A stretch of DNA of 64,000 nt. It comes from Desulfobacteraceae bacterium (GTDB taxonomy: Bacteria > Desulfobacterota > Desulfobacteria > Desulfobacterales > JAABSP01). The position numbers were made by a program, and so were the translations under genes. The stretch is taken from positions 6,206-70,205 of the forward strand of contig JAABSP010000022.1 in assembly GCA_011390345.1 (NCBI GenBank), given 5' to 3'. The notes under the pieces were generated by a model. It saw nothing but the letters and a program-made list of their open reading frames with translations. It had not been told where the DNA came from and did not search any database. This document shows, piece by piece, positions 20,769 through 36,738 of the stretch (position 1 is the first letter of the stretch; the number at the start of each line of letters is the position of its first letter).

Positions 20769-20948
20769 TACCGTTGGCGCCCTTTTTTGCCAGATCCCAA
20801 AGATGATGATGTGCTTGAATTGGCTGTTGCCTCAAATGTAAATATCATTACGACTTTCAATATCAAAGATTTTAAAGGTAGTAAAAAATTTGGTGTAAAA
20901 ATTATATCTCCTAAACAACTATTGGAGGAAATAGAATGGGAACTTTAA
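20769..20948 (+). pseudogene. C-terminal fragment of a PIN-family toxin gene
   Basis: The frame is open from the stop at 20766-68 and has no start codon. It reads …PDPKDDDVLELAVASNVNIITTFNIKDFKGSKKFGVKIISPKQLLEEIEWEL*, which matches only the C-terminal half of PIN toxins. Confidence 0.5.
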
Positions 20949-21019
20949 GCCTTCGGTTACCCGAATCCATTCATCGCCATATCCGGGCCGATTATGATTG
21001 GAAGGAAAGGGGAATCGTT

Positions 21020-21124
21020 ATGAAGGCCAGAAAACTGCCCATCGGCATTTCCGGCTTTGAAAAACTGATCGGGGAGGGATACTACTACATCGACAAAACC
21101 CCTTTCATCAAAAATGCAATCTGA
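21020..21124 (+). pseudogene. N-terminal fragment (34 codons) of a predicted AAA-ATPase / PD-(D/E)XK family gene
   Basis: MKARKLPIGISGFEKLIGEGYYYIDKTPFIKN is the characteristic N-terminus of this protein family of about 500 aa, and here it stops after 34 codons. Just upstream, MGTLSLRLPESIHRHIR looks like the first 17 aa of an antitoxin. Confidence 0.5.
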
Positions 21125-21380: not shown

Positions 21381-21395
21381 GGCACATCCTTTGCA
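21381..21395 (+). promoter_or_regulatory. Sigma-54 (-24/-12) promoter candidate at the head of the DUF362/mft/lar/aor block
   Basis: aGGCACatcctTTGCAt has exact GG-N10-GC spacing and one mismatch to TGGCAC-N5-TTGCA. It lies about 120 nt upstream of the first DUF362 start. Confidence 0.55.
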
Positions 21396-21516
21396 TATAG
21401 CCTCCACTTTGAGAACCAAAGGGAAAGGAGGGATGCAGAAACCGCAGAACATGGAAGTTTTGCACAGGCAAAGGGCGATTGATTTTTGAAATCGGAGAAT
21501 GAAAGGAGGAGACCCG

Positions 21517-23016
21517 GTGGCTGATTACAAATGCGAACCCACCAAGTGGGTCGAGATGTCCCAGCCCGTCGACGGCGGCAGGGACACTTATCAGACAAAG
21601 AGCTGGCATCCGCCCAAGGAGAACTGGGGGCCTTTCACCACATCGGGCACAGCCCCGGTATGGTTTGCGGAGGCCAATGCCACCAACTGGACCGAGTCGA
21701 TGATCTGCAAGGCCAAGGATCTGTTCTACGAGGCCAAGCTGAATGAGTGCTTCGACAAAGGAGACGAGGTCGCTATCAAGATCCACTACGGCGAATGGAA
21801 CCGGACCGCGATCCTGCGGCCCGAATACATCGCGGCCATCGTGGAGGAGGTCAAAGCCTGCGGCGGCAACCCCTATGTGGTCAACGACACGACGTTGTCC
21901 TACCACATCTTCAATTCCATGGCCTATTCCCACTATCAGAAGGCCGGCGCGACCCGCCACGGGTACACCGACGCGACCTTCGGATGTCCGGTGGTCGTGG
22001 CCGACGGTTTTGCAGGTGAGGATGATTATCGGGTGGACATTCCCGACGGATTGATCCTCAAGGAGACCTACATCGGCCGGGCCGTCGCGGAGGCAGACGC
22101 GATGATCGTGCTGGCCCACGCCCGGGGGCACGCCATCACCATGTACGGCGGCGCGCTGAAGCAGCTCGGGATCGGGTGCCAGTCCAAGCGGGGCAAGTAC
22201 ATCACTCACCTGGCCCACTGGGGCGATCCCCATGATGCGATCGGCTGGCCCAAGTTTACGGACCAGTGTCCGGGCAAGGCGTGCAAGTTCCATCAGATGT
22301 GCGATGACTCCTGTCCCAGAGGCGCACATCATGTGGTGGAGCACGGCAAGGTCTGGGACCCCTCCAAGTGCCGTCTCTGCTACTCCTGTCAGGTGACCTG
22401 CATCTTTTCGGGCATGACCGGCATCACCTTTGAGGAGAACTACTTCCCCAATGCGATGATCGCACATGCGGATGCGGCCCTGGGCGCGCTCAAGTGCTTC
22501 GAGAAGGGGAAGGTCGGCTACATCAACCATGCCATTGACGTGGTTCCGGAGTGCGACTGCTTCCCGTGGGCCGGTCTTGCCATCTGCGCGGATGTGGGGC
22601 TTTTTGCCGGCAAGGATCTGGTGGCCGTGGAGATGGCGACTCTGGATGCCATCGACAAGATGGCCATCAGCCCGGGATCGGTGGCCGAGGAGAAGGGGTG
22701 CAAGCCCGGCGACGACAAGTTCCAGATGGTCAACGGCTTCAGCCCGAGGATCACCATGGCCGCGGCCGAAAAGATCGGACTGGGCGGCCAGAAGTATGAG
22801 CTGATCAACTACGAGCCGGTGCTCTCCCCGGAGAGCGCGGCCCGCTGGCAGGTCCGGGGCGCAGGCGGCGAAAAGGGCAAGGCGACTACGCTGCGACTGA
22901 GAGAGACGTTCCATCGGAATGATCTCGCCACCGAAGTGCAGCCCTTCAGGCGGACCGATTACAACAAGGAGTGGGTCTTCAGCGAGTGGAAGAAGTACGA
23001 TCCCTTCAGCAAATAG
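21517..23016 (+). CDS. DUF362-family protein with Cys-rich (ferredoxin-like) insert
   Basis: …GDEVAIKIHYGEWNRTAILRPEYIAAIVEEVKACGGNPYVVNDT… and …INHAIDVVPECDCFPWAG… fit DUF362. The Cys-rich insert is CPGKACKFHQMCDDSCPRG…CRLCYSCQVTC. I prefer the GTG at 21517, with AGGAGG 6 nt upstream, over the ATG at 21499. Confidence 0.75.
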   Translation: MADYKCEPTKWVEMSQPVDGGRDTYQTKSWHPPKENWGPFTTSGTAPVWFAEANATNWTESMICKAKDLFYEAKLNECFDKGDEVAIKIHYGEWNRTAILRPEYIAAIVEEVKACGGNPYVVNDTTLSYHIFNSMAYSHYQKAGATRHGYTDATFGCPVVVADGFAGEDDYRVDIPDGLILKETYIGRAVAEADAMIVLAHARGHAITMYGGALKQLGIGCQSKRGKYITHLAHWGDPHDAIGWPKFTDQCPGKACKFHQMCDDSCPRGAHHVVEHGKVWDPSKCRLCYSCQVTCIFSGMTGITFEENYFPNAMIAHADAALGALKCFEKGKVGYINHAIDVVPECDCFPWAGLAICADVGLFAGKDLVAVEMATLDAIDKMAISPGSVAEEKGCKPGDDKFQMVNGFSPRITMAAAEKIGLGGQKYELINYEPVLSPESAARWQVRGAGGEKGKATTLRLRETFHRNDLATEVQPFRRTDYNKEWVFSEWKKYDPFSK

Positions 23017-23136
23017 ACCCGGCAGGTGAGTTGTAGCTGATTGCAGGAGAAAAGCCGGGGGAGGCAATCTGCCTTCTCCGGCCCCTTTCCCGAGCATAAA
23101 AACCGAATTAAGATCGCAATCGGGAGACAGAGATCC

Positions 23137-24072
23137 ATGAGCGAAGTAGTATGGGTGGATACCCGGCAGATGAGCTTTGAAAATTCGATCCGTCACAAGC
23201 TTCTCCGCCTGTCCGAGGCCGCAGGGATCATCGAGGATCTTTTGGAATCGATGCAGGTGGCGGTGAAGATCAACACCGCGGAAGAGGGGTATGAGTATGG
23301 CCTTCGGCCCAACTTCATCCAGGTCTTTACTGAGGTCATGGAGGAGAAGACCCTCAAATGCCCCCTGATCTGTGACGGACAGCGTCTGGTGGACTACTGG
23401 CGAAAGGCCCGGGGGAATACCTTTCTGAAGACGGCCGGGGCCAGGGGATACAGCAAAGAGACTCTGGGAGGGCTTTTTCTCCTAAACGGCGGATTTTCGG
23501 GCGATGAGGGGGATCTTTATCCCTGCGGCTCGACCGAATCGGAGCTGGGCGGGGTCGAAGTGGGGGCCGCGGTCTGCCGGGCCGATGCGCTACGGGTGCT
23601 CTCCCATGTGACTTTGCACCCGCTCTTTGGAATAAATGGTGCGCTGTTGAACAGCGGGTTTGAATGTCTGTCGGGCAGGGCAAGGACCCGGGTGCTGCAG
23701 GGGTTGAGCCCTTATATCTTCAACGGCAGCCGGCCCGGAAGGGATCAGGTGAATGGATTTCAGCGGCGGGCTCTGGAGAGCTGTTTCGGGGTTCGGACCG
23801 CTGTTGAAGAGCGAATCTTTTACGTCAACTATCTCTGGGATGTTACGCCCCAGCCCGAATATTATCCTTTCAGCGAGGGGCCGGTGGCGGAGAATATCGG
23901 CTTTCTCGCCTCCAATGACCCGGTGGCCCTGGACGGCGCCACTTGGGCACTGATAACAAAACAGAATCCCGCAATCGAGGAGATGGTCGGTGTCGATGTT
24001 CCCGGTCTGATCCGAACAGCGGCCGATATGGGGCTGGGCAGTGCGGAATGGTCGATCCGGCAGATCTCCTGA
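23137..24072 (+). CDS. Second DUF362-family protein (no Fe-S insert)
   Basis: …MQVAVKINTAEEGYEYGLRPNFIQVFTEVMEE… and …ASNDPVALDGATWALI… are DUF362-like. I used the ATG at 23137 within ORF 23041..24072. Confidence 0.7.
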   Translation: MSEVVWVDTRQMSFENSIRHKLLRLSEAAGIIEDLLESMQVAVKINTAEEGYEYGLRPNFIQVFTEVMEEKTLKCPLICDGQRLVDYWRKARGNTFLKTAGARGYSKETLGGLFLLNGGFSGDEGDLYPCGSTESELGGVEVGAAVCRADALRVLSHVTLHPLFGINGALLNSGFECLSGRARTRVLQGLSPYIFNGSRPGRDQVNGFQRRALESCFGVRTAVEERIFYVNYLWDVTPQPEYYPFSEGPVAENIGFLASNDPVALDGATWALITKQNPAIEEMVGVDVPGLIRTAADMGLGSAEWSIRQIS

Positions 24073-24121: not shown

Positions 24122-25129
24122 ATGACGATGAACCGAAGCGAGTTCGTCGATCGCCAGAAACAGCAATTGATGAATGAGGGGGCCATCGCGGATGCCCTTC
24201 AGTATGTCCGGTACAAGATCGCGATCCTCTCCGGAAAGGGCGGCGTGGGAAAGACCGCGGCCACGGTGAACCTCGCGGCCGCACTGCAGAAGGCCGGGAA
24301 CCGGGTGGGGATCTTTGACGCGGATCTCCACGGCCCCAGCATTCCCAAGATGCTCGGGATCAAAAAGGAGCAGGCAAGGCTCAACGGCGCGTTCTGGCTC
24401 GATCCTGTGGTCACGGCAACTGGAATCAAGGCGCTCTCGGTTGCCCTCTTCTGGCCCGGGGAGATGACCCCGGTGATGTGGCGGGGCCAGACCAAGAGCC
24501 GCACCATTCGCCAACTCCTTTCTGCGGCCAAATGGGGGGGGCTCGACTATCTGCTGGTCGATCTTCCTCCGGGAACCGGGGATGAGCCTATCGCGATTTT
24601 AAAGTCGATCCCGGATCTGGACGGCGTCATCATCGTCACCACGCCCCAGGAGGTCTCCACCATGGTCTGCTCCAAGGCCATCAACGCCTCCGTCACACTG
24701 GGGGCCAAGGTGCTGGGCCTCATTGAGAACATGAGCCACTACACATGCAGTTGCGGTGATACGGTCTATCTCTTCGGTAGAGACAAGGGGAAACAGCTTG
24801 CGCGGATGATGGAGATCCCGTTTCTGGGGTCAGTCCCCATCGACCCGCAATTCTCCGAGGCGGCCGATACCGGGGTTCCGGTGGTCGATCTCCATCCCCA
24901 AAGCCTGACGGCCACTTCCTTTACCAGAATCGCGGATACCCTGAGCAGCCAACTCCCCCCAAAGGCGGTCAAGGAGGCCCCGCCCGAAGAGCACAAGCCC
25001 TGCCCCGGAGCCAGCCATCATCACGGCCACGGAGAGGGAAGTCACTGCAGCCACGGCCATATCCATGCCAGGCCCAAGGAGGAGGACGGGTGCGGGTGCG
25101 GACATGGCCATGAGCATCATCGGCATTGA
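24122..25129 (+). CDS. Mrp/NBP35(ApbC)-family P-loop ATPase with a C-terminal His/Cys-rich tail
   Basis: The deviant Walker A is ILSGKGGVGKT, followed by DLPPGTGDE and MSHYTCSCGD. The tail reads CPGASHHHGHGEGSHCSHGHIHARPKEEDGCGCGHGHEHHRH. Confidence 0.85.
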   Translation: MTMNRSEFVDRQKQQLMNEGAIADALQYVRYKIAILSGKGGVGKTAATVNLAAALQKAGNRVGIFDADLHGPSIPKMLGIKKEQARLNGAFWLDPVVTATGIKALSVALFWPGEMTPVMWRGQTKSRTIRQLLSAAKWGGLDYLLVDLPPGTGDEPIAILKSIPDLDGVIIVTTPQEVSTMVCSKAINASVTLGAKVLGLIENMSHYTCSCGDTVYLFGRDKGKQLARMMEIPFLGSVPIDPQFSEAADTGVPVVDLHPQSLTATSFTRIADTLSSQLPPKAVKEAPPEEHKPCPGASHHHGHGEGSHCSHGHIHARPKEEDGCGCGHGHEHHRH

Positions 25130-25287: not shown

Positions 25288-25614
25288 TTGAGCGATCAGA
25301 AGATGGGAACCCATTATGTGAGAGAGGTGTGTGAGATTTTCAGAAATGTGGCGGCAAAGAGCCCCTTTCCCGATGTCCAGGAGCGGCTGAACAAGATCGC
25401 AGACGAGCTGGAGCCGATCGCGACCAAGCTCTACTTCAAGACCCAGAAGGGAACCGAGGACATGAAGGAGCTGGCTGAGCAGGCACAGGATCTCGACGCG
25501 AAGCTCTCCGCATGCAAGGAGTCCGGAGAGGCCGATGCGGTCTGCAATCCCTTCTTCGTGGAGCTGGAGAAGATCATCAAGCACGTCAAGACCATGAAGG
25601 TACGGATGACCTGA
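25288..25614 (+). CDS. Hypothetical helical protein (108 aa)
   Basis: It is an ORF with AAGGAGG 7 nt upstream of a TTG start. I recognised no family. Confidence 0.5.
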   Translation: MSDQKMGTHYVREVCEIFRNVAAKSPFPDVQERLNKIADELEPIATKLYFKTQKGTEDMKELAEQAQDLDAKLSACKESGEADAVCNPFFVELEKIIKHVKTMKVRMT

Positions 25615-25626
25615 AGGAGATCTTCA

Positions 25627-26055
25627 ATGGAACAGCATGCGACGGCGCAGGAGCCGGCGGAACAGTGTCCGGAAGCTGTAGAGAATGGCGCAGGGATCAC
25701 CGAAGAGATGAGCCGGGAGATGGTCGAGGATATTACCCGGCTCGGCATTCGCACCGCGGTGCTGCTCAGAGGGGTGATGCTTCAGAAGGTGGATCGGGAG
25801 ACCCTCCGGTGGGGGCTGGACGAGCTGGGGGTGGATGATCTGATGGCGCGGTATATCGGCCCGCTGCTGAATGTACCGGATCATGTGCAACTGCTGAACC
25901 TGCTCTACCTCGTCTACGGCCTCCACGGACAGATCGACTATCAGATCCGGGAGTACGGGCTCGACTCTTTGAAGGATGACCTTCAGGAGATCAATTTCAG
26001 CCTGCAGCAGATCGGCGAGCAGTTCCGGCTCGAAGAGTTGAAGGTGGCGATTTAA
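25627..26055 (+). CDS. Hypothetical protein (142 aa)
   Basis: It is an intact ORF 12 nt after the previous stop. I recognised no family. Confidence 0.5.
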   Translation: MEQHATAQEPAEQCPEAVENGAGITEEMSREMVEDITRLGIRTAVLLRGVMLQKVDRETLRWGLDELGVDDLMARYIGPLLNVPDHVQLLNLLYLVYGLHGQIDYQIREYGLDSLKDDLQEINFSLQQIGEQFRLEELKVAI

Positions 26056-26094
26056 GAGATATTTGGGTAAAGGATTAGGAAAAGGAGCAAAAGG

Positions 26095-26907
26095 ATGAAA
26101 CTGAAAGAGAAGGTGGCCATCGTCACCGGCGGGGCAAGGGGCAACGGATTTGCCGCGGCAAAGTGCATGGCCCAAGAGGGTGCGCATATCGTCATCGCGG
26201 ATATCTGCGAGGATATGGAGACGATTCCGTATAAGATGACCACCGCAGAGGGGATGGAAAAGGCGGTGGGAGAGATCCAGTCCCTGGGCGTGAAGGCGCT
26301 TGGAATCAAGTGCGACGTGCGCAAGGCGGCCGATGTGGAGCAGATGGTGGAAAAGGTGATCGCCGAGTTCGGGAAGATCGACATCCTGGTCAACAACGCA
26401 GGCAACACCTCTATGGTCGCGATCGCGGATATGGACGAGAAGACCTGGGATGAGGTGCTCGACACTCATCTCAAAGGGATGTACCTCTGCTGCCGGTATG
26501 CGCTGCCCCATATGATCAACGCCCATTCCGGATGCATCATCAGCATCTCCTCGGTGGGAGGGCAGCGGGGATTCGGCATGGGAGGCCACTACTGTGCAGC
26601 CAAGCACGGGATCATCGGCCTGAACAAATCGATCGCGATGGAGGTGGCCGATCACAATATTCGCGCCAATGTGGTCTGTCCGGGAACGGTCTGGACAGAC
26701 ATGATGAAGGGGATCGCGTCCTATTTTGGAATGGACGACGAGGCCGAGGCCAAAGAGCAGTTCTTCGCGGGACACATGATCAAAGATCCCGAGGTCGCGC
26801 CGGAGGACATCGGCCGGGCCGTCTGCTGGCTGGCCACCGACGACACGCGGTGCATCACCGGAAACATGATCACCGTGGACGGCGGCTGGACTGCGCAGGC
26901 CCCATAA
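26095..26907 (+). CDS. SDR-family oxidoreductase of the mycofactocin-coupled type
   Basis: TGGARGNG is the Rossmann motif. The characteristic insertion IVIADICEDMETIPYKMTTAEGMEKAV resembles the DIC…VPYPMATPEDL insert of mycofactocin-associated SDRs. The catalytic motif is YCAAK. The gene lies immediately upstream of mftA. Confidence 0.8.
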   Translation: MKLKEKVAIVTGGARGNGFAAAKCMAQEGAHIVIADICEDMETIPYKMTTAEGMEKAVGEIQSLGVKALGIKCDVRKAADVEQMVEKVIAEFGKIDILVNNAGNTSMVAIADMDEKTWDEVLDTHLKGMYLCCRYALPHMINAHSGCIISISSVGGQRGFGMGGHYCAAKHGIIGLNKSIAMEVADHNIRANVVCPGTVWTDMMKGIASYFGMDDEAEAKEQFFAGHMIKDPEVAPEDIGRAVCWLATDDTRCITGNMITVDGGWTAQAP

Positions 26908-26949
26908 ACCCTCAATCTTTAATTTATCGGAAAGGAGGAAGAGAGACGT

Positions 26950-27090
26950 ATGGAAAAAGAGGCGAGAGAGAAGAACCTGCAGGAGAAGGAGACGGAGCAG
27001 CGTCCCCAGGATACCGTAGAGATTCCGGCCATCCTCGAGGAGGTCAATATCGAGGAGCTTGCTGTGGACGGTATCTGCGGCATCTACTAA
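26950..27090 (+). CDS. mftA: Mycofactocin-type precursor peptide (46 aa), not in the ORF track
   Basis: My own translation gives MEKEAREKNLQEKETEQRPQDTVEIPAILEEVNIEELAVDGICGIY*. AGGAGG lies 11 nt upstream. The C-terminus parallels the canonical MftA …IDGMCGVY. mftB and mftC follow directly. Confidence 0.8.
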   Translation: MEKEAREKNLQEKETEQRPQDTVEIPAILEEVNIEELAVDGICGIY

Positions 27091-27132
27091 GGAAGAAAGA
27101 CCAGACCGAAAACTTCTTCTGTGCCAAAAGGT

Positions 27133-27160
27133 TTCCGGCCTCCTTTCGGGGAGGTCGGAA
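27133..27160 (+). terminator. Stable hairpin just after the precursor gene (attenuator or RNA-stabiliser candidate)
   Basis: ttccggcctcc-tttcgg-ggaggtcggaa forms an 11-bp stem with one G-U pair. No strong T-run follows, so read-through into mftB is likely. Confidence 0.45.
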
Positions 27161-27230
27161 GCCTTCGCTTTCAAAATGGCATGGGGCCATGATGGAGGCA
27201 TGACCATATCGGAGATTCAAGGAGAGAGGA

Positions 27231-27512
27231 ATGCGATCCAATACGGTTTACCACCTGAAGACCGGGGTGCAGGTCCGGCCCGAGGTCTTCGGACTCCTCT
27301 TCTACAACTATCGGGGGCCCAGGCTCTATTTCGTGCCGTCCAAGGATCTGATCCCGTCGGAATTCTTCGGGGGAAAGGAGACCGTGGGGGATCTCGTGAC
27401 GGGCATCTGCAAACGGATGCCGTGGCCCGGGGATGTTGTGGGAAAAAAGATCCAGGAGATTCTGGACATGCTGGAAGGAAGGGAGCTGATCTATGGGGAA
27501 TCAGTATGTTGA
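27231..27512 (+). CDS. mftB: Mycofactocin biosynthesis chaperone MftB (PqqD-like RRE)
   Basis: …VQVRPEVFGLLFYNYRGPRLYFV… parallels the mycobacterial MftB segment VRPEPFGALLYHFGTRKLSFL. The size is 93 aa. Confidence 0.8.
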   Translation: MRSNTVYHLKTGVQVRPEVFGLLFYNYRGPRLYFVPSKDLIPSEFFGGKETVGDLVTGICKRMPWPGDVVGKKIQEILDMLEGRELIYGESVC

Positions 27513-28575
27513 TATGGGGCTTTCGGCCCCGGTAAACGTCACCTGGGAGGTCACCTTCGGCTGCAATCTCTCCTGTGTCCACTGCCTCTCCGATTCGGGA
27601 AGGCGGCGCGAAGGAGAGCTGACCACAGAGCAGTGCCGGGCGGTGATCGACGATCTTTCCCGAAACCATGTCTTTCAGCTCAACATCGGCGGGGGCGAGC
27701 CCTTCTCCCGCCCCGATTTTCTCGATCTGATGGATTACGCGCACGACCGGGGGATCGTCACCTGCATCAGCACCAACGGAACTTTGATCGACGAGAAGAT
27801 CGCCCGGGGTCTCGATCACCGGCTCGTTTACATCCAGGTGAGTCTGGACGGGGCAACCCCGGAATCCAACGATGCGATCCGGGGGAAGGGGAGTTTTGCC
27901 AGCGTGATGCGGGCATTGGAGCATCTTAAGGGGAGGGGGATCGAGGTGAGCATCAACTGTGTGCTGACCCGGCTCAGCTTTCCGGAGCTGGATAAACTCC
28001 ACGATCTGGCCGCGCATTACGGGGCAAAGCTGCGGGTTTCAAGGTTCCGGCCTTCGGGAAGGGGCAAGGATTCCTGGTCCGATCTCAACCTCTCCAGGGA
28101 TCAGATGGTATCCTTTTCCGAATGGCTCAACAGCCATCTTGGGGTTTCCACGGGAGATTCCTTCTTTTCCGTCTCAAGTGAGGAGCGAAGGTCATTGGGG
28201 CTCAACATGTGCGGCGCGTGCAAGCTCACCTGCTGCGTATCCCCCCAGGGGGAGGTCTACCCTTGCGCATTTTTGCAGGATGCCGATTTTCTTTCGGGAA
28301 GGGTTCCGGAGGACGACTTTGCCCGGATCTGGCGGGAGTCGCGCGTATTCCACTCCTTTCGGGAACTGGAGATCAAATCCTGCGAGAGCTGCCACCGGTT
28401 CGATCTCTGTCACGGAGGGTGTCCCGCGATCGCCTACCATACCCAGCGAAAGCTCGGTGTTCCGGACCCGGGATGTCTGGTAAACTGCGTAACGGTTAAA
28501 TCGATGAACACATTGGGAAATGAGTTGAAGAAAAAAGCAGGCGACGATATTCGTCCTGCGGCCGGATACGCATAG
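27493..28575 (+). CDS. mftC: Mycofactocin radical SAM maturase MftC (rSAM plus SPASM)
   Basis: GLSAPVNVTWEVTFGCNLSCVHCLSDSGRRREGELTTEQC…NIGGGEPFSRPDF is very close to the MftC N-terminal region. The SPASM cysteines are CGACKLTCCVSPQGEVYPC…C..C…CHGGC. An alternative start is the ATG at 27514. Confidence 0.9.
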   Translation: MGNQYVDMGLSAPVNVTWEVTFGCNLSCVHCLSDSGRRREGELTTEQCRAVIDDLSRNHVFQLNIGGGEPFSRPDFLDLMDYAHDRGIVTCISTNGTLIDEKIARGLDHRLVYIQVSLDGATPESNDAIRGKGSFASVMRALEHLKGRGIEVSINCVLTRLSFPELDKLHDLAAHYGAKLRVSRFRPSGRGKDSWSDLNLSRDQMVSFSEWLNSHLGVSTGDSFFSVSSEERRSLGLNMCGACKLTCCVSPQGEVYPCAFLQDADFLSGRVPEDDFARIWRESRVFHSFRELEIKSCESCHRFDLCHGGCPAIAYHTQRKLGVPDPGCLVNCVTVKSMNTLGNELKKKAGDDIRPAAGYA

Positions 28576-28577: not shown

Positions 28578-30101
28578 ATGCGTGCAGGAATTCTCAGCGG
28601 AGAGCTGACCCTCTCCCCCGGGGTCTCCCTTTTCCAGGGGCCCGACGCGGGGGTGCTGCTCCAGTCCGATCCGATGCGGGCTATCAAGGTCAACGCTGCG
28701 GCCGCGGGGATTCTTGCCCGCTGTCGAAAGGGATGGCGTATCGACGAAAACGCGGACGATCCGCTGCTGAACGCGGCGCTGCCCATGCTCGACCTTTTCA
28801 TTCAGGCCGGCATTCTTCAATGGAGCCCGCCCTCCGAGGGATTCACCCCCTTTGTCAGCATCGTGGTTCCGGTCTTCAACAGGGCTTCGGAGATCGAGGC
28901 CTGCATCCGCTCCCTGCTCGATCTCGATTATCCGGAGGATCTGCGGGAGATCATCGTGGTGGACGATGCTTCGGTCGATTCGACCCCGGATATGGTTTCG
29001 AAGTATCCGGTGCAATTGTTGAGAATGGCGGAAAACCGGGGCCAGTCGGCCGCGCGGAACCGGGGGGTGGAAGCGGCAAGAGGGGAGATCATCGCGTTCA
29101 CCGACAGCGACTGCATCGCAGATCCGAACTGGCTCAAAGATATTCTGCCCTTTTTTCGGGATGAACGGATCGCACTTGCCGGTGGCCTGGTGGATGCCTA
29201 TTACAAAAAGAGCTTTCTGGACCGGTACGAGGCGGCCCAATCCCCCCTCAACATGGGGGAAAAGCCGCTGATCGGTGCCGGAGACCGCTCCGTCTTCTAT
29301 GTCCCGACCTGCAACATCCTTTTCAGAAAGTCGGCCTATGGGGAGATCGGGGGCCTGAACGAGTCGATCCGGGTTGGGGAGGATGTGGATCTCTCCTGGC
29401 GCCTGCTGGCCCGGGGCCACCGGCTCCTCTATCTGCCCAGGGGCCGGGTACTTCACAAACACCGTTCCCGCTTCAAAGATGCCTTCTGCCGCCGCTTCGA
29501 CTACGGCACTTCCGAGCCGGCCCTCTATCTTGCGCATCAGCGGACCATCAAGCGGTTTCCGAGACAGCAGGGGGGTCTGCCATTCTTTGCTCTCTGCGGC
29601 ATGGGCTGTTTGACACTTCCCTGGCTCTTCTTTCCCGGGGCCGGACTGATTCTGCTGGGAGAGGCGCTTTACAAGCGGCGCCAGGCGTCAAAGATGCTGG
29701 ACGCGCCCCTCGCGTTTTACCCCATCTTCAAAGCAGTCCTCCGAAGCCGGTTTACCCTGACCCATTATCTCGCGCTTCACCTGACCCGCTACTATCTGCT
29801 GCCCATGATCGCGCTGGGGCTGATATTTCCGAAAACGATTCCAATACTTTCAGGGCTTGCATTTTTCCCCGCACTTGTGCTCTATTATCGGAAACGGCCG
29901 GATCTCAACTTTCCCCTCTTTGCCCTTTTTTTTCTGACGGAACAGGCATTTTATCAGGCCGGTGTGATGCGGGGATGTTTCAAGACCAGGTGCTTCAGAC
30001 CCTATCGGATCACCTTTTCCGGCGCGGGTTTTCTGAAGAAGAGCCCGGAAAAATGGCGAAAGATATGGCCATTTCGAAAAAAGATGGGGGAGAGCGTTTG
30101 A
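28578..30101 (+). CDS. mftF: Mycofactocin-system glycosyltransferase MftF (GT2 with C-terminal membrane region)
   Basis: The GT2 core is VSIVVPVFNRASEIEACIRSLL…IIVVDDASVDST…ENRGQSAARNRG…FTDSDC…GEDVDLSWR. It has an N-terminal PqqD-like region and C-terminal TM helices, and it sits right after mftC. Confidence 0.8.
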   Translation: MRAGILSGELTLSPGVSLFQGPDAGVLLQSDPMRAIKVNAAAAGILARCRKGWRIDENADDPLLNAALPMLDLFIQAGILQWSPPSEGFTPFVSIVVPVFNRASEIEACIRSLLDLDYPEDLREIIVVDDASVDSTPDMVSKYPVQLLRMAENRGQSAARNRGVEAARGEIIAFTDSDCIADPNWLKDILPFFRDERIALAGGLVDAYYKKSFLDRYEAAQSPLNMGEKPLIGAGDRSVFYVPTCNILFRKSAYGEIGGLNESIRVGEDVDLSWRLLARGHRLLYLPRGRVLHKHRSRFKDAFCRRFDYGTSEPALYLAHQRTIKRFPRQQGGLPFFALCGMGCLTLPWLFFPGAGLILLGEALYKRRQASKMLDAPLAFYPIFKAVLRSRFTLTHYLALHLTRYYLLPMIALGLIFPKTIPILSGLAFFPALVLYYRKRPDLNFPLFALFFLTEQAFYQAGVMRGCFKTRCFRPYRITFSGAGFLKKSPEKWRKIWPFRKKMGESV

Positions 30102-30108
30102 ACGGAAG

Positions 30109-30206
30109 TTTGAATACAACTTTGAATACAACAGGGGAAATGGGCGCGGATCGCGGCATGGATCACAGCACGGATCGGAAAACGGATCGGAAAACGGATC
30201 ACAGCA
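30109..30206. repeat. Phased 12-bp repeats between mftF and larE (2 x tttgaatacaac, then five GGATC cores exactly 12 bp apart)
   Basis: The GGATC cores start at 30148, 30160, 30172, 30184 and 30196. The units are arranged A-B-B-A (ggatcacagca / cggatcggaaaa x2 / cggatcacagca) and end at the larE ATG. Confidence 0.9.
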
Positions 30207-31039
30207 TGAACCGCAAATACGAGGCGCTCAAAGAAATCCTGCGGCAGATGGATCGGGTCCTGCTTGCCTTTTCCGGCGGGGTGGACAGCGCGTTTCTGCT
30301 GCGGGTCGCATCTGAAGAATTGAACGGAAATCTTCTTGCAGTGACAGCCATTTCAGAGACCACCCCCGCACATGAGCAGGAGGAGGCCGTTCGAATTGCA
30401 GCACTCTGCAACGCTCAGCACCTGACGGTGGAGACCCATGAGCTGAATGACCCCGAGTTCACATCGAACCCGGAAGAGAAGTGCTACATCTGCAAAAAGT
30501 ACCGCTTCGGCCTGCTGGCGGATCTGGCGGTGGAGAAGGGGTATCCGGTCGTGATCGACGGCACCAACGCGGATGACAGCAAGGATTTCCGGCCCGGGAT
30601 GCGGGCTCTTCGGGAACTCTCGGTGCGAAGCCCCCTGGCCGAGGCCGGGCTGACCAAATCCGAGATCCGGGCACTTTCAAAACAGCTCGACCTGCCCACA
30701 TGGGACAAGCCGGCCTATGCCTGTCTGGCCACCCGCATCCCCTGCGGCAGTTCCATCACCGGGGAAAGGCTTTCCCGGATCGACAGAGCCGAAGACTTTT
30801 TAAGGGGGTTGGGCGTCAAAGGTCAGGTGCGGGTTCGGGATTACGGGGAGATGTGCCGCATCGAAAGCGCGTCCGACATGATCCAGACGATCGCGGCCCC
30901 CGAAATCCGGGAGCAGATCGTGAACCATTTTTCAAAAATCGGATATAAGTTCGTGACCATCGACCTTGCCGGATACCGGATGGGAAGCGTGGTGCGGCAG
31001 TCTGCGCCGGAACAGAATGGATCGAAACAAGGCCGATAA
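30206..31039 (+). CDS. larE: LarE, ATP-dependent sulfur transferase of nickel-pincer nucleotide (NPN) cofactor synthesis
   Basis: The PP-loop is LLAFSGGVDSAFLL. The Cys set (CYICKK, …YACLATRIPCGS) is of the type reported for Fe-S-binding LarE homologues. I chose the ATG at 30206 so the N-terminus matches LarE spacing before SGGxDS. Confidence 0.85.
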   Translation: MNRKYEALKEILRQMDRVLLAFSGGVDSAFLLRVASEELNGNLLAVTAISETTPAHEQEEAVRIAALCNAQHLTVETHELNDPEFTSNPEEKCYICKKYRFGLLADLAVEKGYPVVIDGTNADDSKDFRPGMRALRELSVRSPLAEAGLTKSEIRALSKQLDLPTWDKPAYACLATRIPCGSSITGERLSRIDRAEDFLRGLGVKGQVRVRDYGEMCRIESASDMIQTIAAPEIREQIVNHFSKIGYKFVTIDLAGYRMGSVVRQSAPEQNGSKQGR

Positions 31040-31115
31040 ACCGGGGCCGATAAACCGGAGCGGATAAATAAAGACCGATAAATAAATGCGGAAAAATGCG
31101 GTTAAATAAGGAGAA

Positions 31116-31919
31116 GTGATGGACAGCCAATATCTGAAGGGCCTGCTGGAGCAGGTGAAGAGCGGCCGTATGAATACGGACGCGGCCATGGAAGCCTTGA
31201 AGGATCTCCCCTTCGAGGATCTCGGATATGCCAAGGTGGACAACCACCGGTGCGTGCGAAACGGTGTGCCCGAGGTGATCTACTGCGAAGGAAAGACCGT
31301 CTCCCAGATCAAAGGGATCATCGCCCGGATCGCGCGGCACAATTCCAATATACTGGCCACCCGCGCGGACCCGGAGGTCTATGAGGGCATCCGGGAGGAG
31401 ATCGAAGACTGCGTTTACCATGAGATGGCCCGGATCGTTGTGGTGAAGCCGAAGGAAGTCGAGAGCATCGGCAATATCGCGGTGGTCTCTGCGGGAACCT
31501 CGGACATCCCGGTGGCCGAAGAGGCCGCAATCACAGCCCAGACTTTGGGCAATCACGTCAACCGGATCTATGATGTGGGCGTCGCGGGTATCCATCGGAT
31601 TCTCCATGCCAGAAAGGATCTTTTTCAGGCCAATGTGGCCGTGGTGGTAGCGGGGATGGAGGGGGCACTGGCCAGCGTCGTGGGCGGACTCGTCTCCTGC
31701 CCGGTCATCGGGGTTCCCACCAGCATCGGATACGGGGCCAGCTTCGGCGGGATCTCGGCCCTGCTGACCATGCTCAACTCCTGTGCATCCGGGGTCTCTG
31801 TGGTCAACATCGACAACGGCTTCGGCGCAGGATATCAGGCGAGCCTCATCAACCGGACCGCCCTGAAATCCCTGCCCAAATCGGACACCGAACCGGTCTC
31901 CCTTGCAAAGGTCTGCTGA
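31116..31919 (+). CDS. larB: LarB, NaAD carboxylase/hydrolase (PurE-like)
   Basis: …LPFEDLGYAKVDNHRCVRNGVPEVIYCEGKT… and …VVSAGTSDIPVAEEA…VAGMEGALASVVGG… are typical LarB segments. Confidence 0.9.
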   Translation: MMDSQYLKGLLEQVKSGRMNTDAAMEALKDLPFEDLGYAKVDNHRCVRNGVPEVIYCEGKTVSQIKGIIARIARHNSNILATRADPEVYEGIREEIEDCVYHEMARIVVVKPKEVESIGNIAVVSAGTSDIPVAEEAAITAQTLGNHVNRIYDVGVAGIHRILHARKDLFQANVAVVVAGMEGALASVVGGLVSCPVIGVPTSIGYGASFGGISALLTMLNSCASGVSVVNIDNGFGAGYQASLINRTALKSLPKSDTEPVSLAKVC

Positions 31920-31923
31920 AAAG

Positions 31924-33123
31924 ATGAAAATCGCCTATTTCGACTGTTTTGCCGGGGCCAGCGGCGACATGATTCTCGGCGCGCTGCTGGATGCGGGTCT
32001 GGAACTGGAAAGCCTGAAAAATGAGGTTGCAAAGATAGGCCTCGACCGGTATGATCTCGGAGTGGAACCCGTGGTGAAACGGGGGATCGGCGGGACCAAA
32101 GCCATCGTCTCCGTGGACGAGGATCATCATGGCCACCACCATCGCCACCTGCGCCATATCGAGGAGATCATCAACGGCAGCACCCTCGATGACCGGGTCA
32201 AGGAAAAAAGCCTTGCCATCTTCCGCCGCCTTGCCGAGGCCGAAGCCAATGTCCATCGCACCTCTGTCGAGAGTGTCCATTTTCATGAAGTGGGCGCGAT
32301 GGATGCTATCCTCGATGTGGTCGGATCTGTGATCGGCTTTCATCTGCTGGGGATCGAAAGGATCTACTGCTCGCCGTTCCATGTGGGATGCGGGACCATT
32401 CATTGTGCCCATGGTCTGCTTCCGGTTCCTGCCCCGGCAACCGCAGCGCTGACGGTCGGGTTTCCGGTCTATTCTAACGGCGTAAAGGGGGAACTGCTCA
32501 CGCCCACGGGCGCGGCCATATTGACGACTCTGGCCCAGGGTTTTGGGCCCATGCCGGCCATGACCGCGGAACAAATCGGCTACGGCGCAGGGACAGCAGA
32601 TCCCGAGGAGATTCCCAACCTGCTGCGGGTGACCATCGGGGAGAACGCTTCAAGTGATGGGCTGGACCAATATGAGGCCGAATCCATCTGCGTTCTGGAG
32701 ACCAATATCGACGACATGAACCCCCAGCTTTATGAAAATCTGATCGAGAAGGTACTGGCCGCGGGCGCGGTCGATGTCTCTCTTGCCCCGGTTCAGATGA
32801 AGAAGAACAGGCCCGGCACAATGGTGACGGTCCTCTGTTCCCACGACCGTCTTGCAACCCTTTCCGATCTGCTGCTGAGGGAGACGACATCCATCGGACT
32901 TCGCTGGCGGACCGATTCGAGGATCATGGCCCGGCGGACCTTCCGGGAAATCGACACCCCCTACGGCCCCATAAAGGTGAAGGTGGCCCAAAAAGGGGAG
33001 GAGATCATCAATATAATGCCCGAATATGAAGACTGCAGACGACTGGCCGCGGAAAAGGGGGTTCCCCTGAAAACCGTGATCGAGGCCGCTGCTGTTGCTG
33101 CAAAGTCGGATTTGGAGCCATAA
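31924..33123 (+). CDS. larC: LarC, nickel insertase for the NPN cofactor
   Basis: MKIAYFDCFAGASGDMILGALLDAG… is typical LarC. It has the His-rich region DEDHHGHHHRHLRH, followed by …HFHEVGAMDAILDVVG… and …MKKNRPG…. Confidence 0.9.
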   Translation: MKIAYFDCFAGASGDMILGALLDAGLELESLKNEVAKIGLDRYDLGVEPVVKRGIGGTKAIVSVDEDHHGHHHRHLRHIEEIINGSTLDDRVKEKSLAIFRRLAEAEANVHRTSVESVHFHEVGAMDAILDVVGSVIGFHLLGIERIYCSPFHVGCGTIHCAHGLLPVPAPATAALTVGFPVYSNGVKGELLTPTGAAILTTLAQGFGPMPAMTAEQIGYGAGTADPEEIPNLLRVTIGENASSDGLDQYEAESICVLETNIDDMNPQLYENLIEKVLAAGAVDVSLAPVQMKKNRPGTMVTVLCSHDRLATLSDLLLRETTSIGLRWRTDSRIMARRTFREIDTPYGPIKVKVAQKGEEIINIMPEYEDCRRLAAEKGVPLKTVIEAAAVAAKSDLEP

Positions 33124-33160
33124 GCAAAGAGGTTTAACCCAGAAAAAAAAGGGAGGAAAA

Positions 33161-34897
33161 ATGGACAAGATTCTTCGCATCAACATGGGACCGGACGGCG
33201 CACCGAGCGTAAAGGAAGAGGGCTTGGGAGACTACGCCGGACTCGGCGGAAGGGGCATGACATCGTCCGTGATCGGCAAAGAGGTGCCGGCGGACAGTCA
33301 CCCCCTCGGCGCAGAGAACAAGCTGGTCATCTCCCCGGGGCTGCTCTCCGGAACGGCCGCGGCTATGTCGGGCCGGATCTCGGTCGGCTGCAAAAGCCCC
33401 CTCACCGGAACCATCAAGGAGTCCAACGCGGGGGGTCAGGCCGCGCAGGTCATGGCCCGCCTAGGATATGCGGCCATCATTCTGGAGGGAAAGCCGAAAG
33501 CCGACACGCTCTACAAACTGATCATCAACAAGGACGGGGTGAAGCTGGAAGAAGACAACAGCCTGAAACTCCTAAACAACTATGAACTGGTGGATAAGCT
33601 CAAGGAGGCCTACGGCGAGAAGATCACCTGCATGACCATCGGATCTGCCGGAGAGCGGAAGCTCGGTTCGGCCACCATCGCGGTCACCGATATGGAGGTT
33701 CGCCCCACCCGCCACTGCGGCCGGGGCGGCACAGGAGCTGTGATGGGCGCCAAGGGCCTCAAGGCGATCATCTTCGACGACTCCGGCATGAAGATGCGCG
33801 CCCCCAAGGACCCCGAGGCATTCAAGGCCGCGAACAAGCGTTTCGTCGAGGGTCTGCGGAAGCACCCGGTCACGGGCGAAGGGCTTCCGGCCTACGGAAC
33901 CAACGTGCTGACCAACGTCCTCTCCGAGGCCGGCGGCTACCCCACCAACAACTTCAGCAAGGGAACCTTCGAAGGCGCATCAAAGATTTCCGGCGAGGCC
34001 CAGGCCGAGCTGGAGACCCAGAGGGGCGGTTCGGCCACCCACGGGTGCCATCGGGGATGCATCATCCGCTGCTCCGGAACCTTCAATGACAAGAACGGCC
34101 GATTCCTGACCAAGCAGCCCGAGTACGAGACCGTATGGGCCCACGGCGGCAACTGCGGGATCGACGATCTCGACGCGATCGCCATGATGGACCGGCTCGA
34201 CGATGATTACGGTCTGGACACAATCGAGATGGGCGCGAGCGTGGCTGTTGCAATGGATGCCGGGATCGCAAAGTTCGGCGACGCGGAGGCCGCGATCAAC
34301 CTCGTCAAGGAGGTGGGCAAAGGCACGGAGCTGGGCCGGATTCTCGGCAGCGGCGCGGCCGTGACGGGCCGGGTCTTCGGCGTGGAGCGGATTCCGGTGG
34401 TCAAGGGGCAGGCCATGCCGGCCTACGACCCCAGAGCTGTGCAGGGCATCGGCGTCACCTACGCCACCTCCACGATGGGCGCAGACCATACGGCCGGCTA
34501 CGCGGTGGCCACCAACATCCTCAAGGTCGGCGGCGATGTGGACCCCCTGAAGCCCGAAGGACAGGTGGAGCTTTCCAGAAACCTGCAGGTCGCGACGGCC
34601 GCGGTCGATGCCACCGGGATGTGCCTCTTCATCGCGTTTGCTGTCCTGGATCAGCCCGACACCTTCCAGGCCCTGATCGATATGCTCAATGCCTTCTACG
34701 GCCTCGAGATGACCGCAGACGACGTGAGCGAGCTGGGGAAGAAGATTCTGAAAGAGGAGCGGGAGTTCAACAAAAGGGCCGGCTTCACCGCAGAGCATGA
34801 CCGGCTGCCGCGCTTCTTCATTACCGAGCCTGTTGCGCCGCACAACGTCACGTTCCAGGTCTCGGACAAGGAACTCGACAACCTCTTCAACTGGTAA
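33161..34897 (+). CDS. aor: Aldehyde:ferredoxin oxidoreductase (tungsten/pterin AOR family)
   Basis: MDKILRINMGPDG…GLGGRGMTSSVI…, …GRGGTGAVMGAKGLKAI…, …CHRGCIIRC… and …CLFIAF… are AOR-family features. GGGAGG lies 6-7 nt upstream of the ATG at 33161. Confidence 0.9.
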   Translation: MDKILRINMGPDGAPSVKEEGLGDYAGLGGRGMTSSVIGKEVPADSHPLGAENKLVISPGLLSGTAAAMSGRISVGCKSPLTGTIKESNAGGQAAQVMARLGYAAIILEGKPKADTLYKLIINKDGVKLEEDNSLKLLNNYELVDKLKEAYGEKITCMTIGSAGERKLGSATIAVTDMEVRPTRHCGRGGTGAVMGAKGLKAIIFDDSGMKMRAPKDPEAFKAANKRFVEGLRKHPVTGEGLPAYGTNVLTNVLSEAGGYPTNNFSKGTFEGASKISGEAQAELETQRGGSATHGCHRGCIIRCSGTFNDKNGRFLTKQPEYETVWAHGGNCGIDDLDAIAMMDRLDDDYGLDTIEMGASVAVAMDAGIAKFGDAEAAINLVKEVGKGTELGRILGSGAAVTGRVFGVERIPVVKGQAMPAYDPRAVQGIGVTYATSTMGADHTAGYAVATNILKVGGDVDPLKPEGQVELSRNLQVATAAVDATGMCLFIAFAVLDQPDTFQALIDMLNAFYGLEMTADDVSELGKKILKEEREFNKRAGFTAEHDRLPRFFITEPVAPHNVTFQVSDKELDNLFNW

Positions 34898-34997: not shown

Positions 34998-35528
34998 ATG
35001 GAACCATTTGTGCTGACCCTTGAATCGACAGACTCCCCTTTTATCTTTTCCCTGCTCCAGGAAGGGGTGACGGTCCGGGTGCGGGCCGGCTGTTCGGTAA
35101 AGGATATTCTCTGCAACGATCTCCATATCGCGCCCGAATATGTGGAAGAGCGGATCAAGACGGTCTTTTTGAACAACAGGCCCGTGGACGATTATGAAAA
35201 TGCGCTGGTGCGGGAAGGGGACCGGCTGGCCCTTTCCGCGGCAATGCCGGGCCTGGTGGGGGCTACGCTCCGCCGGGGCGGAGTCCTATCGGCCTTTCGA
35301 AGCTCCATCACTCACCTTTCGGAGGAGCAGTGCGAATCCTTTGCCCAAGGGGAGGTGACCATCAAACTCTTCAACCTTCTGGTGCGGGAAATGGCAGCGC
35401 CGCTCCTGACGCATGGAATCATTGTGGAGGGGGAAAGACTTTGCAGGATGGCGAGCGATCTGAATATCGATACGGGAGAGCCTCTGGATGCCCTGGGGCC
35501 GGACCATCGGGTCCTGATTCGATTGTAG
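34998..35528 (+). CDS. Hypothetical protein with a possible N-terminal beta-grasp (ThiS/MoaD-like) domain
   Basis: …VTVRVRAGCSVKDILCNDLHIAPEYVEERIKTVFLNNRPVDDYENALVREGDRLALSAAMPG… resembles a ThiS/MoaD fold pattern, and a tail of about 80 aa follows. This assignment is weak. Confidence 0.35.
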   Translation: MEPFVLTLESTDSPFIFSLLQEGVTVRVRAGCSVKDILCNDLHIAPEYVEERIKTVFLNNRPVDDYENALVREGDRLALSAAMPGLVGATLRRGGVLSAFRSSITHLSEEQCESFAQGEVTIKLFNLLVREMAAPLLTHGIIVEGERLCRMASDLNIDTGEPLDALGPDHRVLIRL

Positions 35529-35608
35529 CGGAAGGGATAGCTTCTTCGGGCTTCAGGGCTGCCACCCTTTGGGGGAAATCACCTTTCTCCCGATCCCAGG
35601 GCCGGCAG

Positions 35609-36733
35609 ATGGCGCGGAACCTGGCCCAAAGGCTGGGGGGCACTCCCTCGGCCTGCTGGCTCTTCTGCTCCCCCGAGGCCGGGCTGGCAGAACTGCTCAA
35701 GGGGGTTCGGGAGGCCGCGGGCACCGATACGATCATCGGCTGCACCACCGACGGCGAGGTCTGTGAAGCCGGCTTCTGCACCAAATCGGCCGTCCTCGGC
35801 GGGATTCTCACCGACAGGATCGAATTCTCGGTTGTTGCCGTGGAGGGCATCGGCCGGGACCCAGAGGGGGCCGGCCGGGATCTGGCTCAAAAGCTTCCGC
35901 AGGGGACGAAATATCTCCAGCTCTTCTCCGACGGTCTGACCGGCAACGGCAACGCGATGCTTAGGGGGGTCGCATCCCATCTGGGAAATTCGGTTCCGGT
36001 GGGCGGCGGCACGGCCGGGGATGCGGGCAGGTTCCATCGCACCTGGCAGTTTATCGGAGACCGCCTTCTCACCGATGCCGCGGTCGCGATCGGCTTTTCC
36101 GGCGATTTCCGGCTCGGCACGGGCGTGGAGAGCGGCTGGATGCCCATTGGCCTTCCCAAGCGGGTGACCCGCGCTTCGGGCAATATCCTCTACGAGCTGA
36201 ACGGCGAACGGGCCCTCCGGGTCTATGAGCGGTTTCTGGGCAAACATGCCAGCCGCCTCCCCGGCGTTGGGGTGGAGTATCCCCTGCTGATCGTAGGCAA
36301 CTATGCCGGGTTTTCGGATGAGTCGGTCCGTCTGCTGCGAGCGACCATGGCCGTAGATCGGAAGAACGGTTCCATCCGATTTGCAGGCGACATCCCCGAG
36401 GGCGCGATGGTCTGCCTCACCTGCGGGGACAGGGCATCGGTGCTCAGGGCCGTGAGCAGCGCCGCAAGGCATGCTTTGGAAGATTTCAAAACAGATGCCG
36501 GCGACGGTTCCGAGGCCCTCTCCCCCGGCATCGTCTTCTCCTACTCCTGCATGGCCCGAAAGATCGTATTGGGCCGCAACACAAAAGAGGAACTCTCCCT
36601 GATCCGGCAGGCTGTCGGAACCCAGGTCCCGGTCATCGGATTCTATTCCTACGGAGAGTACTGCCGCACCCGCCGCGGAGGCCCAAGCCTTTTGCACAAC
36701 GAAACCGCCACTATCTCGGTTCTGGGAATATAA
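35609..36733 (+). CDS. FIST-domain sensor protein
   Basis: …CWLFCSPEAG…IIGCTTDGE…, …VPVGGGTAGD… and …VIGFYSYGE… follow the FIST_N/FIST_C pattern. The start is uncertain, so I used the first ATG after the previous gene. Confidence 0.7.
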   Translation: MARNLAQRLGGTPSACWLFCSPEAGLAELLKGVREAAGTDTIIGCTTDGEVCEAGFCTKSAVLGGILTDRIEFSVVAVEGIGRDPEGAGRDLAQKLPQGTKYLQLFSDGLTGNGNAMLRGVASHLGNSVPVGGGTAGDAGRFHRTWQFIGDRLLTDAAVAIGFSGDFRLGTGVESGWMPIGLPKRVTRASGNILYELNGERALRVYERFLGKHASRLPGVGVEYPLLIVGNYAGFSDESVRLLRATMAVDRKNGSIRFAGDIPEGAMVCLTCGDRASVLRAVSSAARHALEDFKTDAGDGSEALSPGIVFSYSCMARKIVLGRNTKEELSLIRQAVGTQVPVIGFYSYGEYCRTRRGGPSLLHNETATISVLGI

Positions 36734-36738
36734 GCCCT

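Follow-up and report, generated by a model that had tools for sequence, protein, structure and literature searches.

We analysed a 64,000-nucleotide (nt) stretch of contig JAABSP010000022.1 from a Desulfobacteraceae bacterium, hereafter the window, and within it a 46-codon open reading frame (ORF) on the forward strand (26950..27090). An earlier note, made from the sequence alone, had proposed that this ORF encodes a mycofactocin-type precursor peptide ending in VDGICGIY, with AGGAGG 11 nt upstream. The ORF starts with ATG and translates to MEKEAREKNLQEKETEQRPQDTVEIPAILEEVNIEELAVDGICGIY*, and the ending, the positions and the upstream motif were all reproduced exactly. Its surroundings, in order along the window, are as follows.

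26095..26907, + strand: mycofactocin-coupled short-chain dehydrogenase/reductase (SDR), subfamily 3 (NF040490, 522 bits; cutoff 385)
26933..26938, + strand: Shine-Dalgarno sequence AGGAGG, 11 nt 5' of the mftA ATG (direct sequence reading)
26950..27090, + strand: mftA, variant-type mycofactocin precursor, 46 aa, ending IEELAVDGICGIY (translation, NF040489, homologues, synonymous-codon pattern)
27128..27165, + strand: perfect 17-bp hairpin between mftA and mftB (spacer RNA fold -56.6 kcal/mol, z = -3.9)
27231..27512, + strand: mftB, peptide chaperone (TIGR03967, 45.1 bits; cutoff 33)
27493..28575, + strand: mftC, radical S-adenosylmethionine (SAM)/SPASM maturase (TIGR03962, 392.8 bits; cutoff 265)
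28578..30101, + strand: mftF, glycosyltransferase (TIGR03965, 341.6 bits; cutoff 280)

The space between the SDR gene (end 26907) and mftB (start 27231) had been described as 324 nt long and not empty; it measures 323 nt, and it does house the mftA ORF. A ribosome-binding site is visible for both mftA and mftB, and no other ORF in the window ends in DG.CG.Y*. Two ORFs run antisense over mftA, at 25624-27207 (-) and 26919-27083 (-); they look spurious because they lie opposite the well-supported SDR gene and mftA. The ORF had also been called unlisted, which is true of the first-stage ORF track only: public gene callers already call the same 46-aa product on public contigs, 12 of which were examined. 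A public contig with an identical peptide (L001) differs from the window by a length change of ~10 nt that falls between the ends of larE and larB (31039-31919), so the two are different assemblies.

The peptide matches the NCBIfam hidden Markov model (HMM) NF040489, 'variant-type mycofactocin precursor', at 49.5 bits (cutoff 30; E = 3.7e-13), with the full model (positions 1-23) aligned. Together with the adjoining genuine MftB, MftC, MftF and SDR, this match upholds the assignment as a mycofactocin-type precursor. From 5.8 billion proteins, a word-seeded search retrieved 109 homologues; VDGICGIY forms the last eight residues in 109/109, and conservation extends to the longer block IEELAVDGICGIY. 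Many of these homologues are named 'mycofactocin precursor' by JGI and some 'variant-type mycofactocin precursor' by NCBI, MEJ2637968.1 and MFZ1985570.1 being NCBI-named examples with the same tail. The peptide is thus a member of a curated NCBIfam family already named in public annotation, and its detection here is a rediscovery, not a new find. We found no paper or experiment on the NF040489 family in the literature searched. NF040489 also accepts peptides ending in GVY, one of which (from locus L044) scores 47 bits, so that Ile-Tyr by itself does not define the family.

Locus L044 belongs to a third arrangement, observed in a Desulfocicer metagenome-assembled genome (MAG; positions 8749-16665 of L044) and also in L043 and L050. 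Here, the gene for an MftA-like peptide ending IEELAVDGICGVY is flanked by those for an Fe-dependent alcohol dehydrogenase and for a radical SAM protein of 381 aa, distinct from MftC. The next genes encode two proteins annotated as 'mycofactocin system FadH/OYE oxidoreductase 2' and an electron transfer flavoprotein (ETF) alpha subunit, with no MftB or MftC adjacent.

A scan of one genome per species yielded 47 mftA loci, using the search pattern EELAVDGI, with the residues CG[IV]Y standing outside the pattern. Nearly all of these loci come from MAGs (Desulfobacterales, Desulfobacteraceae, Desulfosarcinaceae, Syntrophobacter-type and Desulfatiglandales). Conservation of the surrounding block was assessed by tblastn of the window proteins against the 47 loci; the context of the variant cluster is present in 42 syntenic loci (L053 included), and the per-gene denominators given below count assessable loci. 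In about 40 Desulfobacterales and Syntrophobacterales genomes, the SDR gene and mftABC(F) form part of one co-directional conserved block, and mftA itself is kept in 42/42 loci of this context. The small ORF is therefore retained in syntenic loci of related genomes, a comparison on which the earlier note had made its proposal depend. The nearest loci, L008 and L020, come from Desulfobacteraceae MAGs; the proteins encoded around them share 80-90% identity with those of the window, which places the window in this family.

Pairwise comparison of 47 sequences over their final 13 codons gave 7199 synonymous and 721 non-synonymous codon differences, a pattern that points to selection on the mftA ORF at the protein level. 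We regard the ORF as almost certainly a real gene and a member of the MftA-type family.

The genes flanking mftA are similarly constant: the subfamily 3 SDR (SDR3) lies upstream of mftA in 38/39 loci, mftB is kept in 39/39 and mftC in 38/38. The match of mftB to TIGR03967 aligns residues 5-44 only, that is, the N-terminal half, and a precomputed Pfam MftB_chaperone match is flagged as weak. A CxxxCxxC motif is visible in the partial N-terminus of MftC. The mftB and mftC genes overlap by 20 nt, and mftC and mftF are separated by 2 nt. The SDR is presumed to be the redox partner of the cofactor, and the Ile45-Tyr46 dipeptide is presumed to be the core of the mftA peptide.

Within the hairpin of the mftA-mftB spacer, the part at 27143-27161 alone fits a simple terminator-like pattern, although such consensus matches are no evidence of function. 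Strong hairpins, unrelated in sequence, occur in many but not all orthologous mftA-mftB spacers, and loci with spacers of 20-26 nt have none. We infer that the hairpin is a transcript-stabilising or attenuating element that raises the level of the precursor over that of the enzymes. A riboswitch was considered as its source and rejected, as an Rfam scan of the whole window at gathering thresholds returned nothing.

The translation carries Ile instead of Val as the penultimate residue, as the earlier note had read it. How common such termini are was examined in a search with an MftA-like profile across 1.84 billion cluster representatives, which gave 488 matches at E <= 1e-3. Among the best 150 MftA-like clusters, for which tails were tallied, we counted IDGICGVY (61), VDGICGIY (40), VDGICGVY (38), IDGVCGVY (4), IDGICGIY (2) and VDGVCGVY (2). 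Ile-Tyr ends account for 42 of the best 148 clusters, a sizeable minority and no rarity. Judged from these tails, Ile at position -5 (DGICG) is common in non-mycobacterial MftA peptides, and the only distinctive residue is the Ile at -2.

Among the same-context loci, Ile-Tyr was found in 41/42 and Val-Tyr in 1/42. The single Val-Tyr peptide (L047, 10001-10123), from a Syntrophobacteraceae MAG, lies in a full DUF362/SDR3/mftBC/Lar cluster, with an MftC 73% identical to that of the window. Within the variant clade, position -2 therefore alternates between Ile and Val, with closely related MftCs serving both residues, and this alternation would fit an MftC that accepts either.

In mycobacteria, MftB binds MftA, MftC carries out the oxidative decarboxylation of the terminal Tyr and its cyclisation with the penultimate Val, and MftE releases 3-amino-5-[(4-hydroxyphenyl)methyl]-4,4-dimethyl-2-pyrrolidinone (AHDP), a 4,4-dimethyl pyrrolidinone (PMC7491314). 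MftD then converts AHDP by oxidative deamination into the redox-active keto-amide premycofactocin (PMFT), and MftF adds beta-1,4-glucose units onto the phenol (PMC7491314). By analogy, the conserved P-x-I-L-E-E...I-E-E-L leader segment of the window peptide would be bound by MftB and the C-terminus offered to MftC, which would oxidatively decarboxylate Tyr46 and bond the beta-carbon of Ile45 to the former Tyr alpha-carbon. The same chemistry is possible on Ile because its beta C-H is tertiary, as in Val. In the predicted product, a 4-ethyl-4-methyl pyrrolidinone would replace the 4,4-dimethyl ring found in AHDP, a gain of CH2 (+14.016 Da) with one new quaternary stereocentre. The core would be freed by a peptidase, its phenol glycosylated by MftF where this enzyme is present, and the neighbouring SDR would take the product as electron acceptor.

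An ethyl/methyl lactam instead of the gem-dimethyl one, which the earlier note had foreseen, would follow soundly from the published chemistry of MftC (PMC7491314, PMC10288494). We consider it likely that MftC performs the same chemistry on Ile-Tyr. By a small measure, we favour an end product that works as a mycofactocin-like redox cofactor. Overall, we assign a probability of roughly 0.7 to the reading that this is a genuine variant-type mftA, fixed between the SDR gene and mftB-mftC(-mftF), up to and including the MftC step.

Several observations weigh against this reading. The peptide stays under the cutoff of the canonical MftA model TIGR03969 (22.6 bits, E = 6.9e-5; cutoff 25), the model against which the earlier note had proposed to score it, while it passes the variant model. 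The founding paper (Haft 2011, PMC3023750) termed CGVY invariant and a later one termed Val-Tyr 'essential' (PMC10288494), whereas the peptide tail reads Cys-Gly-Ile-Tyr. In the literature searched, we found no paper with 'GICGIY', and neither a Val-to-Ile MftA substrate test nor an experiment on an Ile-Tyr substrate. The Ile-Tyr tail thus departs from the printed literature, not from the curated databases. MftC look-alikes with other chemistry exist, for example, StsB (PMC10288494). Further, mftF, which was universal in the 2011 survey (PMC3023750), is present in only 22/32 loci and absent in 10/32. About a third of the clusters lack it while being otherwise identical (L012, L014, L017, L018, L023, L027 and L030, with L033, L034, L035, L037, L047 and L048 as further examples), and in these larE or larB comes directly after mftC (~1.1 kb past mftC).

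The absence of MftD and MftE bears on the same question. Pfam and NCBIfam scans were run on hand-selected window ORFs, mostly of more than about 90-150 aa; among the ORFs scanned across the 64 kb, none matched MftD (FMN_dh/TIGR03966, PF01070) or MftE (creatininase/TIGR03964, PF02633). In the syntenic loci, the same genes lie tightly packed, with no room for either. In Mycobacterium smegmatis, deletion of mftD led to the loss of all mycofactocins and the accumulation of AHDP, a redox-inactive amine (PMC7491314). The absence of MftE is tolerable, since an M. smegmatis delta-mftE strain still produces mycofactocin (PMC7491314). With no MftD in the window, the step to the redox-active keto-amide is unaccounted for, and the 'structurally distinct cofactor variant' of the earlier note is not yet secure. 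Either MftD is encoded elsewhere in the genome, or it is replaced, or the product differs. The same scans of selected ORFs found no TetR regulator (MftR) and no glucose-methanol-choline (GMC) oxidoreductase (MftG). Two Actinomycetota loci (L041 and L049), considered as references for MftD and MftE, were set aside, as they held other arrangements instead (OYE2, ETF, FixC, MftF).

The alternative that survives best accepts that MftABC modify the peptide and holds that, for want of MftD, the final product is no keto-amide, being instead an amine lactam, a modified peptide, or a compound that unrelated enzymes complete and that has another redox centre or role. It draws on the failure to find MftD and MftE in the scanned ORFs and in the syntenic loci, on the loss of mycofactocin and build-up of redox-inactive AHDP in the mftD mutant (PMC7491314), and on the dispensability of MftF in about a third of the loci; moreover, MftD, MftE and MftR were already described as non-universal by Haft in 2011 (PMC3023750). 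However, the tightly linked SDR falls in a subfamily curated as mycofactocin-coupled, the tail and MftC are highly conserved relative to the canonical system, and MftD could be encoded elsewhere in the genome. We therefore hold this alternative to be a serious one, if rather unlikely.

The peptide could instead be the precursor of a secreted or antimicrobial peptide of the ribosomally synthesized, post-translationally modified kind (RiPP), not of an intracellular cofactor. A small peptide with a radical SAM/SPASM neighbour and a RiPP recognition element (RRE)-type partner is indeed general RiPP grammar, and relatives of MftC such as StsB make sactipeptides (PMC10288494). Yet the conserved block has no transporter, protease or immunity gene, its neighbouring genes are all for oxidoreductases or cofactor biosynthesis, and the one invariant core is unlike the variability typical of bacteriocins. 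In addition, MftC scores above its own equivalog cutoff and reaches only 118 bits on the look-alike sactipeptide model StsB (cutoff 625), leaving this explanation very improbable. A chance open frame in a GC-rich spacer, its likeness to MftA coincidental, might be entertained given the 158 ORFs of 30 aa or more that overlap the examined 16 kb, but it is refuted by the HMM E-value of 3.7e-13, the conservation of position and sequence in 40+ genomes and the ten-fold excess of synonymous over non-synonymous codon differences.

The variant-type mftA that we favour stands in a longer operon, whose remaining features are as follows.

21381..21395, + strand: sigma-54-type promoter GGCAC-N5-TTGCA, GGCACATCCTTTGCA, ~105 nt upstream of the first DUF362 gene (single motif match in the 64-kb window)
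21499..23016, + strand: DUF362 protein, 505-aa ORF (real start probably later), LarA fold, H211/K221/H237 (Pfam DUF362, PF04015, 130.7 bits)
23041..24072, + strand: second DUF362 paralogue, 343 aa (Pfam DUF362, 55.5 bits)
24122..25129, + strand: Mrp/ApbC-type Fe-S cluster carrier ATPase (NF041136, 284 bits, and PRK11670, 195 bits, both below cutoff)
25288..26055, + strand: two small conserved ORFs between Mrp and SDR, of 108 aa (25288-25614) and 142 aa (25627-26055) (called on public contigs)
30098-31039, + strand: larE (TIGR00268, 303 bits, above cutoff)
31116-31919, + strand: larB (NF033503, 298.7 bits, above cutoff)
31903-33123, + strand: larC (TIGR00299, 226 bits, and NF052512, 150.6 bits, above cutoff)
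33095..34897, + strand: enzyme of the aldehyde:ferredoxin oxidoreductase (AOR) family, tungsten/molybdenum-pterin (Pfam AFOR_N, 191.7 bits, and AFOR_C, 281.2 bits)

A sigma-54-type motif is found upstream of the orthologous DUF362 gene in 28/31 loci; the background rate is 0.04 per 630 nt. The Mrp/ApbC gene is kept in 34/34 loci; larE, larB and larC, which serve nickel-pincer cofactor biosynthesis, are kept in 29/31, 29/29 and 27/27, respectively, directly after mftF or mftC; and the AOR-family gene is kept in 16/22. In nearly all loci, the gap between Mrp and SDR holds two or three ORFs of 97-127 aa, with a few of up to ~150 aa. Those of the window matched no Pfam family. Small ORFs alike in size and position occur in the DUF362 clusters of Pelotomaculum (L054) and of L057, and the small ORFs probably belong to the DUF362/Lar module. 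They had been considered as a substitute for MftE, a role rejected on the grounds that they have no Pfam match and that similar-sized ORFs are found in the Pelotomaculum DUF362/Lar cluster, which has no adjacent mft genes.

Downstream of the AOR gene lie genes for a 176-aa protein, a FIST/NosP-like protein and a PAS hybrid histidine kinase. The latter two (35330-38772, +; the kinase NahK/ErcS-like, below cutoff) end the conserved block, and a PAS sigma-54 activator is encoded at 8046-9536. The histidine kinase, the FIST/NosP-like protein and the sigma-54 activator may regulate the operon. The segment 20380-21340, immediately upstream of the operon, is AT-rich with short gene fragments, among them a 62-aa ORF (20936-21124) that matches the first 26 positions of the AAA-ATPase_like family only; it looks like degraded or inserted DNA.

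Relatives of the module made up of the DUF362 pair, Mrp and the small ORFs occur without adjacent mft genes. In Pelotomaculum thermopropionicum, a species that has the mycofactocin system (Haft 2011, PMC3023750), the DUF362 module stands beside LarB and LarC, with molybdopterin genes near and no mft cluster within the 21 kb examined. On one metagenomic contig, it lies between several AOR genes with LarA 8 kb away, and more distant relatives of the module stand alone. As the module has relatives without mft genes, SDR3-mftABC(F) looks like an insert in a pre-existing DUF362/Lar/AOR module.

The 505-aa DUF362 gene is kept in 33/33 loci and is always followed by that of the 343-aa paralogue (33/33 loci), which has no H..K..H triad and may be a non-catalytic partner subunit. 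We examined an AlphaFold (AF2) model of the 505-aa protein (predicted local distance difference test score (pLDDT) 89.6) by Foldseek against the PDB. The top 19 matches are all LarA, LarA-like nickel-pincer nucleotide (NPN) or malate racemase chains, except for one unnamed structural-genomics entry, with E-values of 2e-6 to 2e-3, probabilities of 0.96-1.0 and low template modelling (TM) scores of 0.26-0.44. A hinged two-domain protein that carries an insertion is expected to give low TM-scores; the insertion here is Cys-rich and ferredoxin-like, with a 2x[4Fe-4S]-like Cys motif. A comparison of 50 homologues, with identities down to 33%, shows no variation at K221 or H237 and at least 90% conservation at H211. 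The spacing of this triad (H211-K221, 10; K221-H237, 16) equals that of H174/K184/H200 in LarA, taken from LarA alignments; in LarA1, His174 is catalytic, Lys184 tethers the NPN and His200 is a nickel ligand.

At the sequence level, hhalign places K221 on the lysine of the LarA GGxK motif, weakly (E = 0.0098, probability 4%), and the protein matches Pfam DUF362 instead of DUF2088/Lar_N. DUF362 and DUF2088, the LarA N-terminal family, belong to the same Pfam clan, CL0471 (PMC11770544). Single-sequence and profile searches of the PDB with the 505-aa protein recovered only its ferredoxin-like segment (AprB, E = 0.011) and not LarA, so the link to LarA comes from the fold comparison only. Selenocysteine was considered for the DUF362 orthologues and rejected: the in-frame TGA codons in L017 and L037 are stop codons that precede the real start and were taken in as an artefact of ORF extension. 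The scanned window ORFs included no LarA (DUF2088) gene. The 505-aa DUF362 protein, encoded in one operon with larE, larB and larC, is a candidate for a new kind of nickel-pincer-dependent enzyme.

Such an enzyme might stand in for MftD, abstracting a hydride from the amine lactam and so oxidising it, or its task might be to re-oxidise mycofactocinol, with the electrons going to Fe-S clusters. An alcohol would then be converted via the aldehyde to the acid by the SDR and the AOR. The whole picture would be of an mft insert in an anaerobic sigma-54-type operon that unites mycofactocin, NPN and tungsten/molybdenum pterin, with the DUF362 Fe-S protein as a new NPN enzyme serving the variant mycofactocin. 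We put this forward as speculative and regard it as doubtful. The coupling of mycofactocin and the nickel-pincer cofactor consists so far only of genomic co-localisation and structural resemblance. In the literature searched, we found no paper linking mycofactocin with the nickel-pincer cofactor, and none on mycofactocin in Desulfobacter*.

The peptide alone adds little, being one more member of a family named by annotation pipelines; what is new is the fixed place of mftA in an operon with nickel-pincer cofactor genes. The departures from the textbook system are the Ile-Tyr core, the failure to find MftD and MftE, and an operon with NPN biosynthesis, two DUF362 proteins and a tungsten-type AOR. 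From the Ile-Tyr core, a cofactor core with an additional CH2 and a new stereocentre is predicted. Many genomes have LarB, LarC and LarE but no LarA. The locus bears on what uses NPN in such genomes, with a DUF362 protein carrying a conserved His-Lys-His triad as the candidate and mycofactocin as its partner.

Compared with known systems, the window peptide and SDR show no sequence-level difference from the NF040489 and NF040490 families. With pyrroloquinoline quinone (PQQ; PqqA, PqqD, PqqE), the locus shares the logic of a small ribosomal peptide, an RRE-type chaperone and a cross-linking SPASM radical SAM enzyme that lead to a redox cofactor. The PQQ core is Glu/Tyr, however, and its product another; the window MftC scores 118.6 bits on PqqE, far under the cutoff of 381, and pqqB, pqqC and pqqF are not present in the window. 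The LarA/LarB/LarC/LarE NPN system is a likeness of the neighbours and not of the peptide. LarE, LarB and LarC score above equivalog cutoffs, and the DUF362 protein shares the fold, clan and triad spacing of LarA. In contrast to LarA, the 505-aa protein is a DUF362 member with a ferredoxin-like Cys insert, accompanied by a triad-less paralogue and an Mrp ATPase, and its use of NPN is putative.

Another related system is the canonical mycobacterial MftABCDEF system of M. smegmatis, M. tuberculosis and M. ulcerans, with which the locus shares a precursor with a DG.CG.Y tail, MftB, MftC, MftF and a linked nicotinoprotein-type SDR. It differs in its tail, which is CGIY and not CGVY, and in a peptide that stays under the TIGR03969 cutoff. 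MftD, MftE, MftR and MftG were not found in the scanned window ORFs, and MftF is optional. Finally, the hosts of the variant are strictly anaerobic sulfate reducers or syntrophs, and its genes lie inside a DUF362/Lar/AOR operon behind a sigma-54-type promoter.

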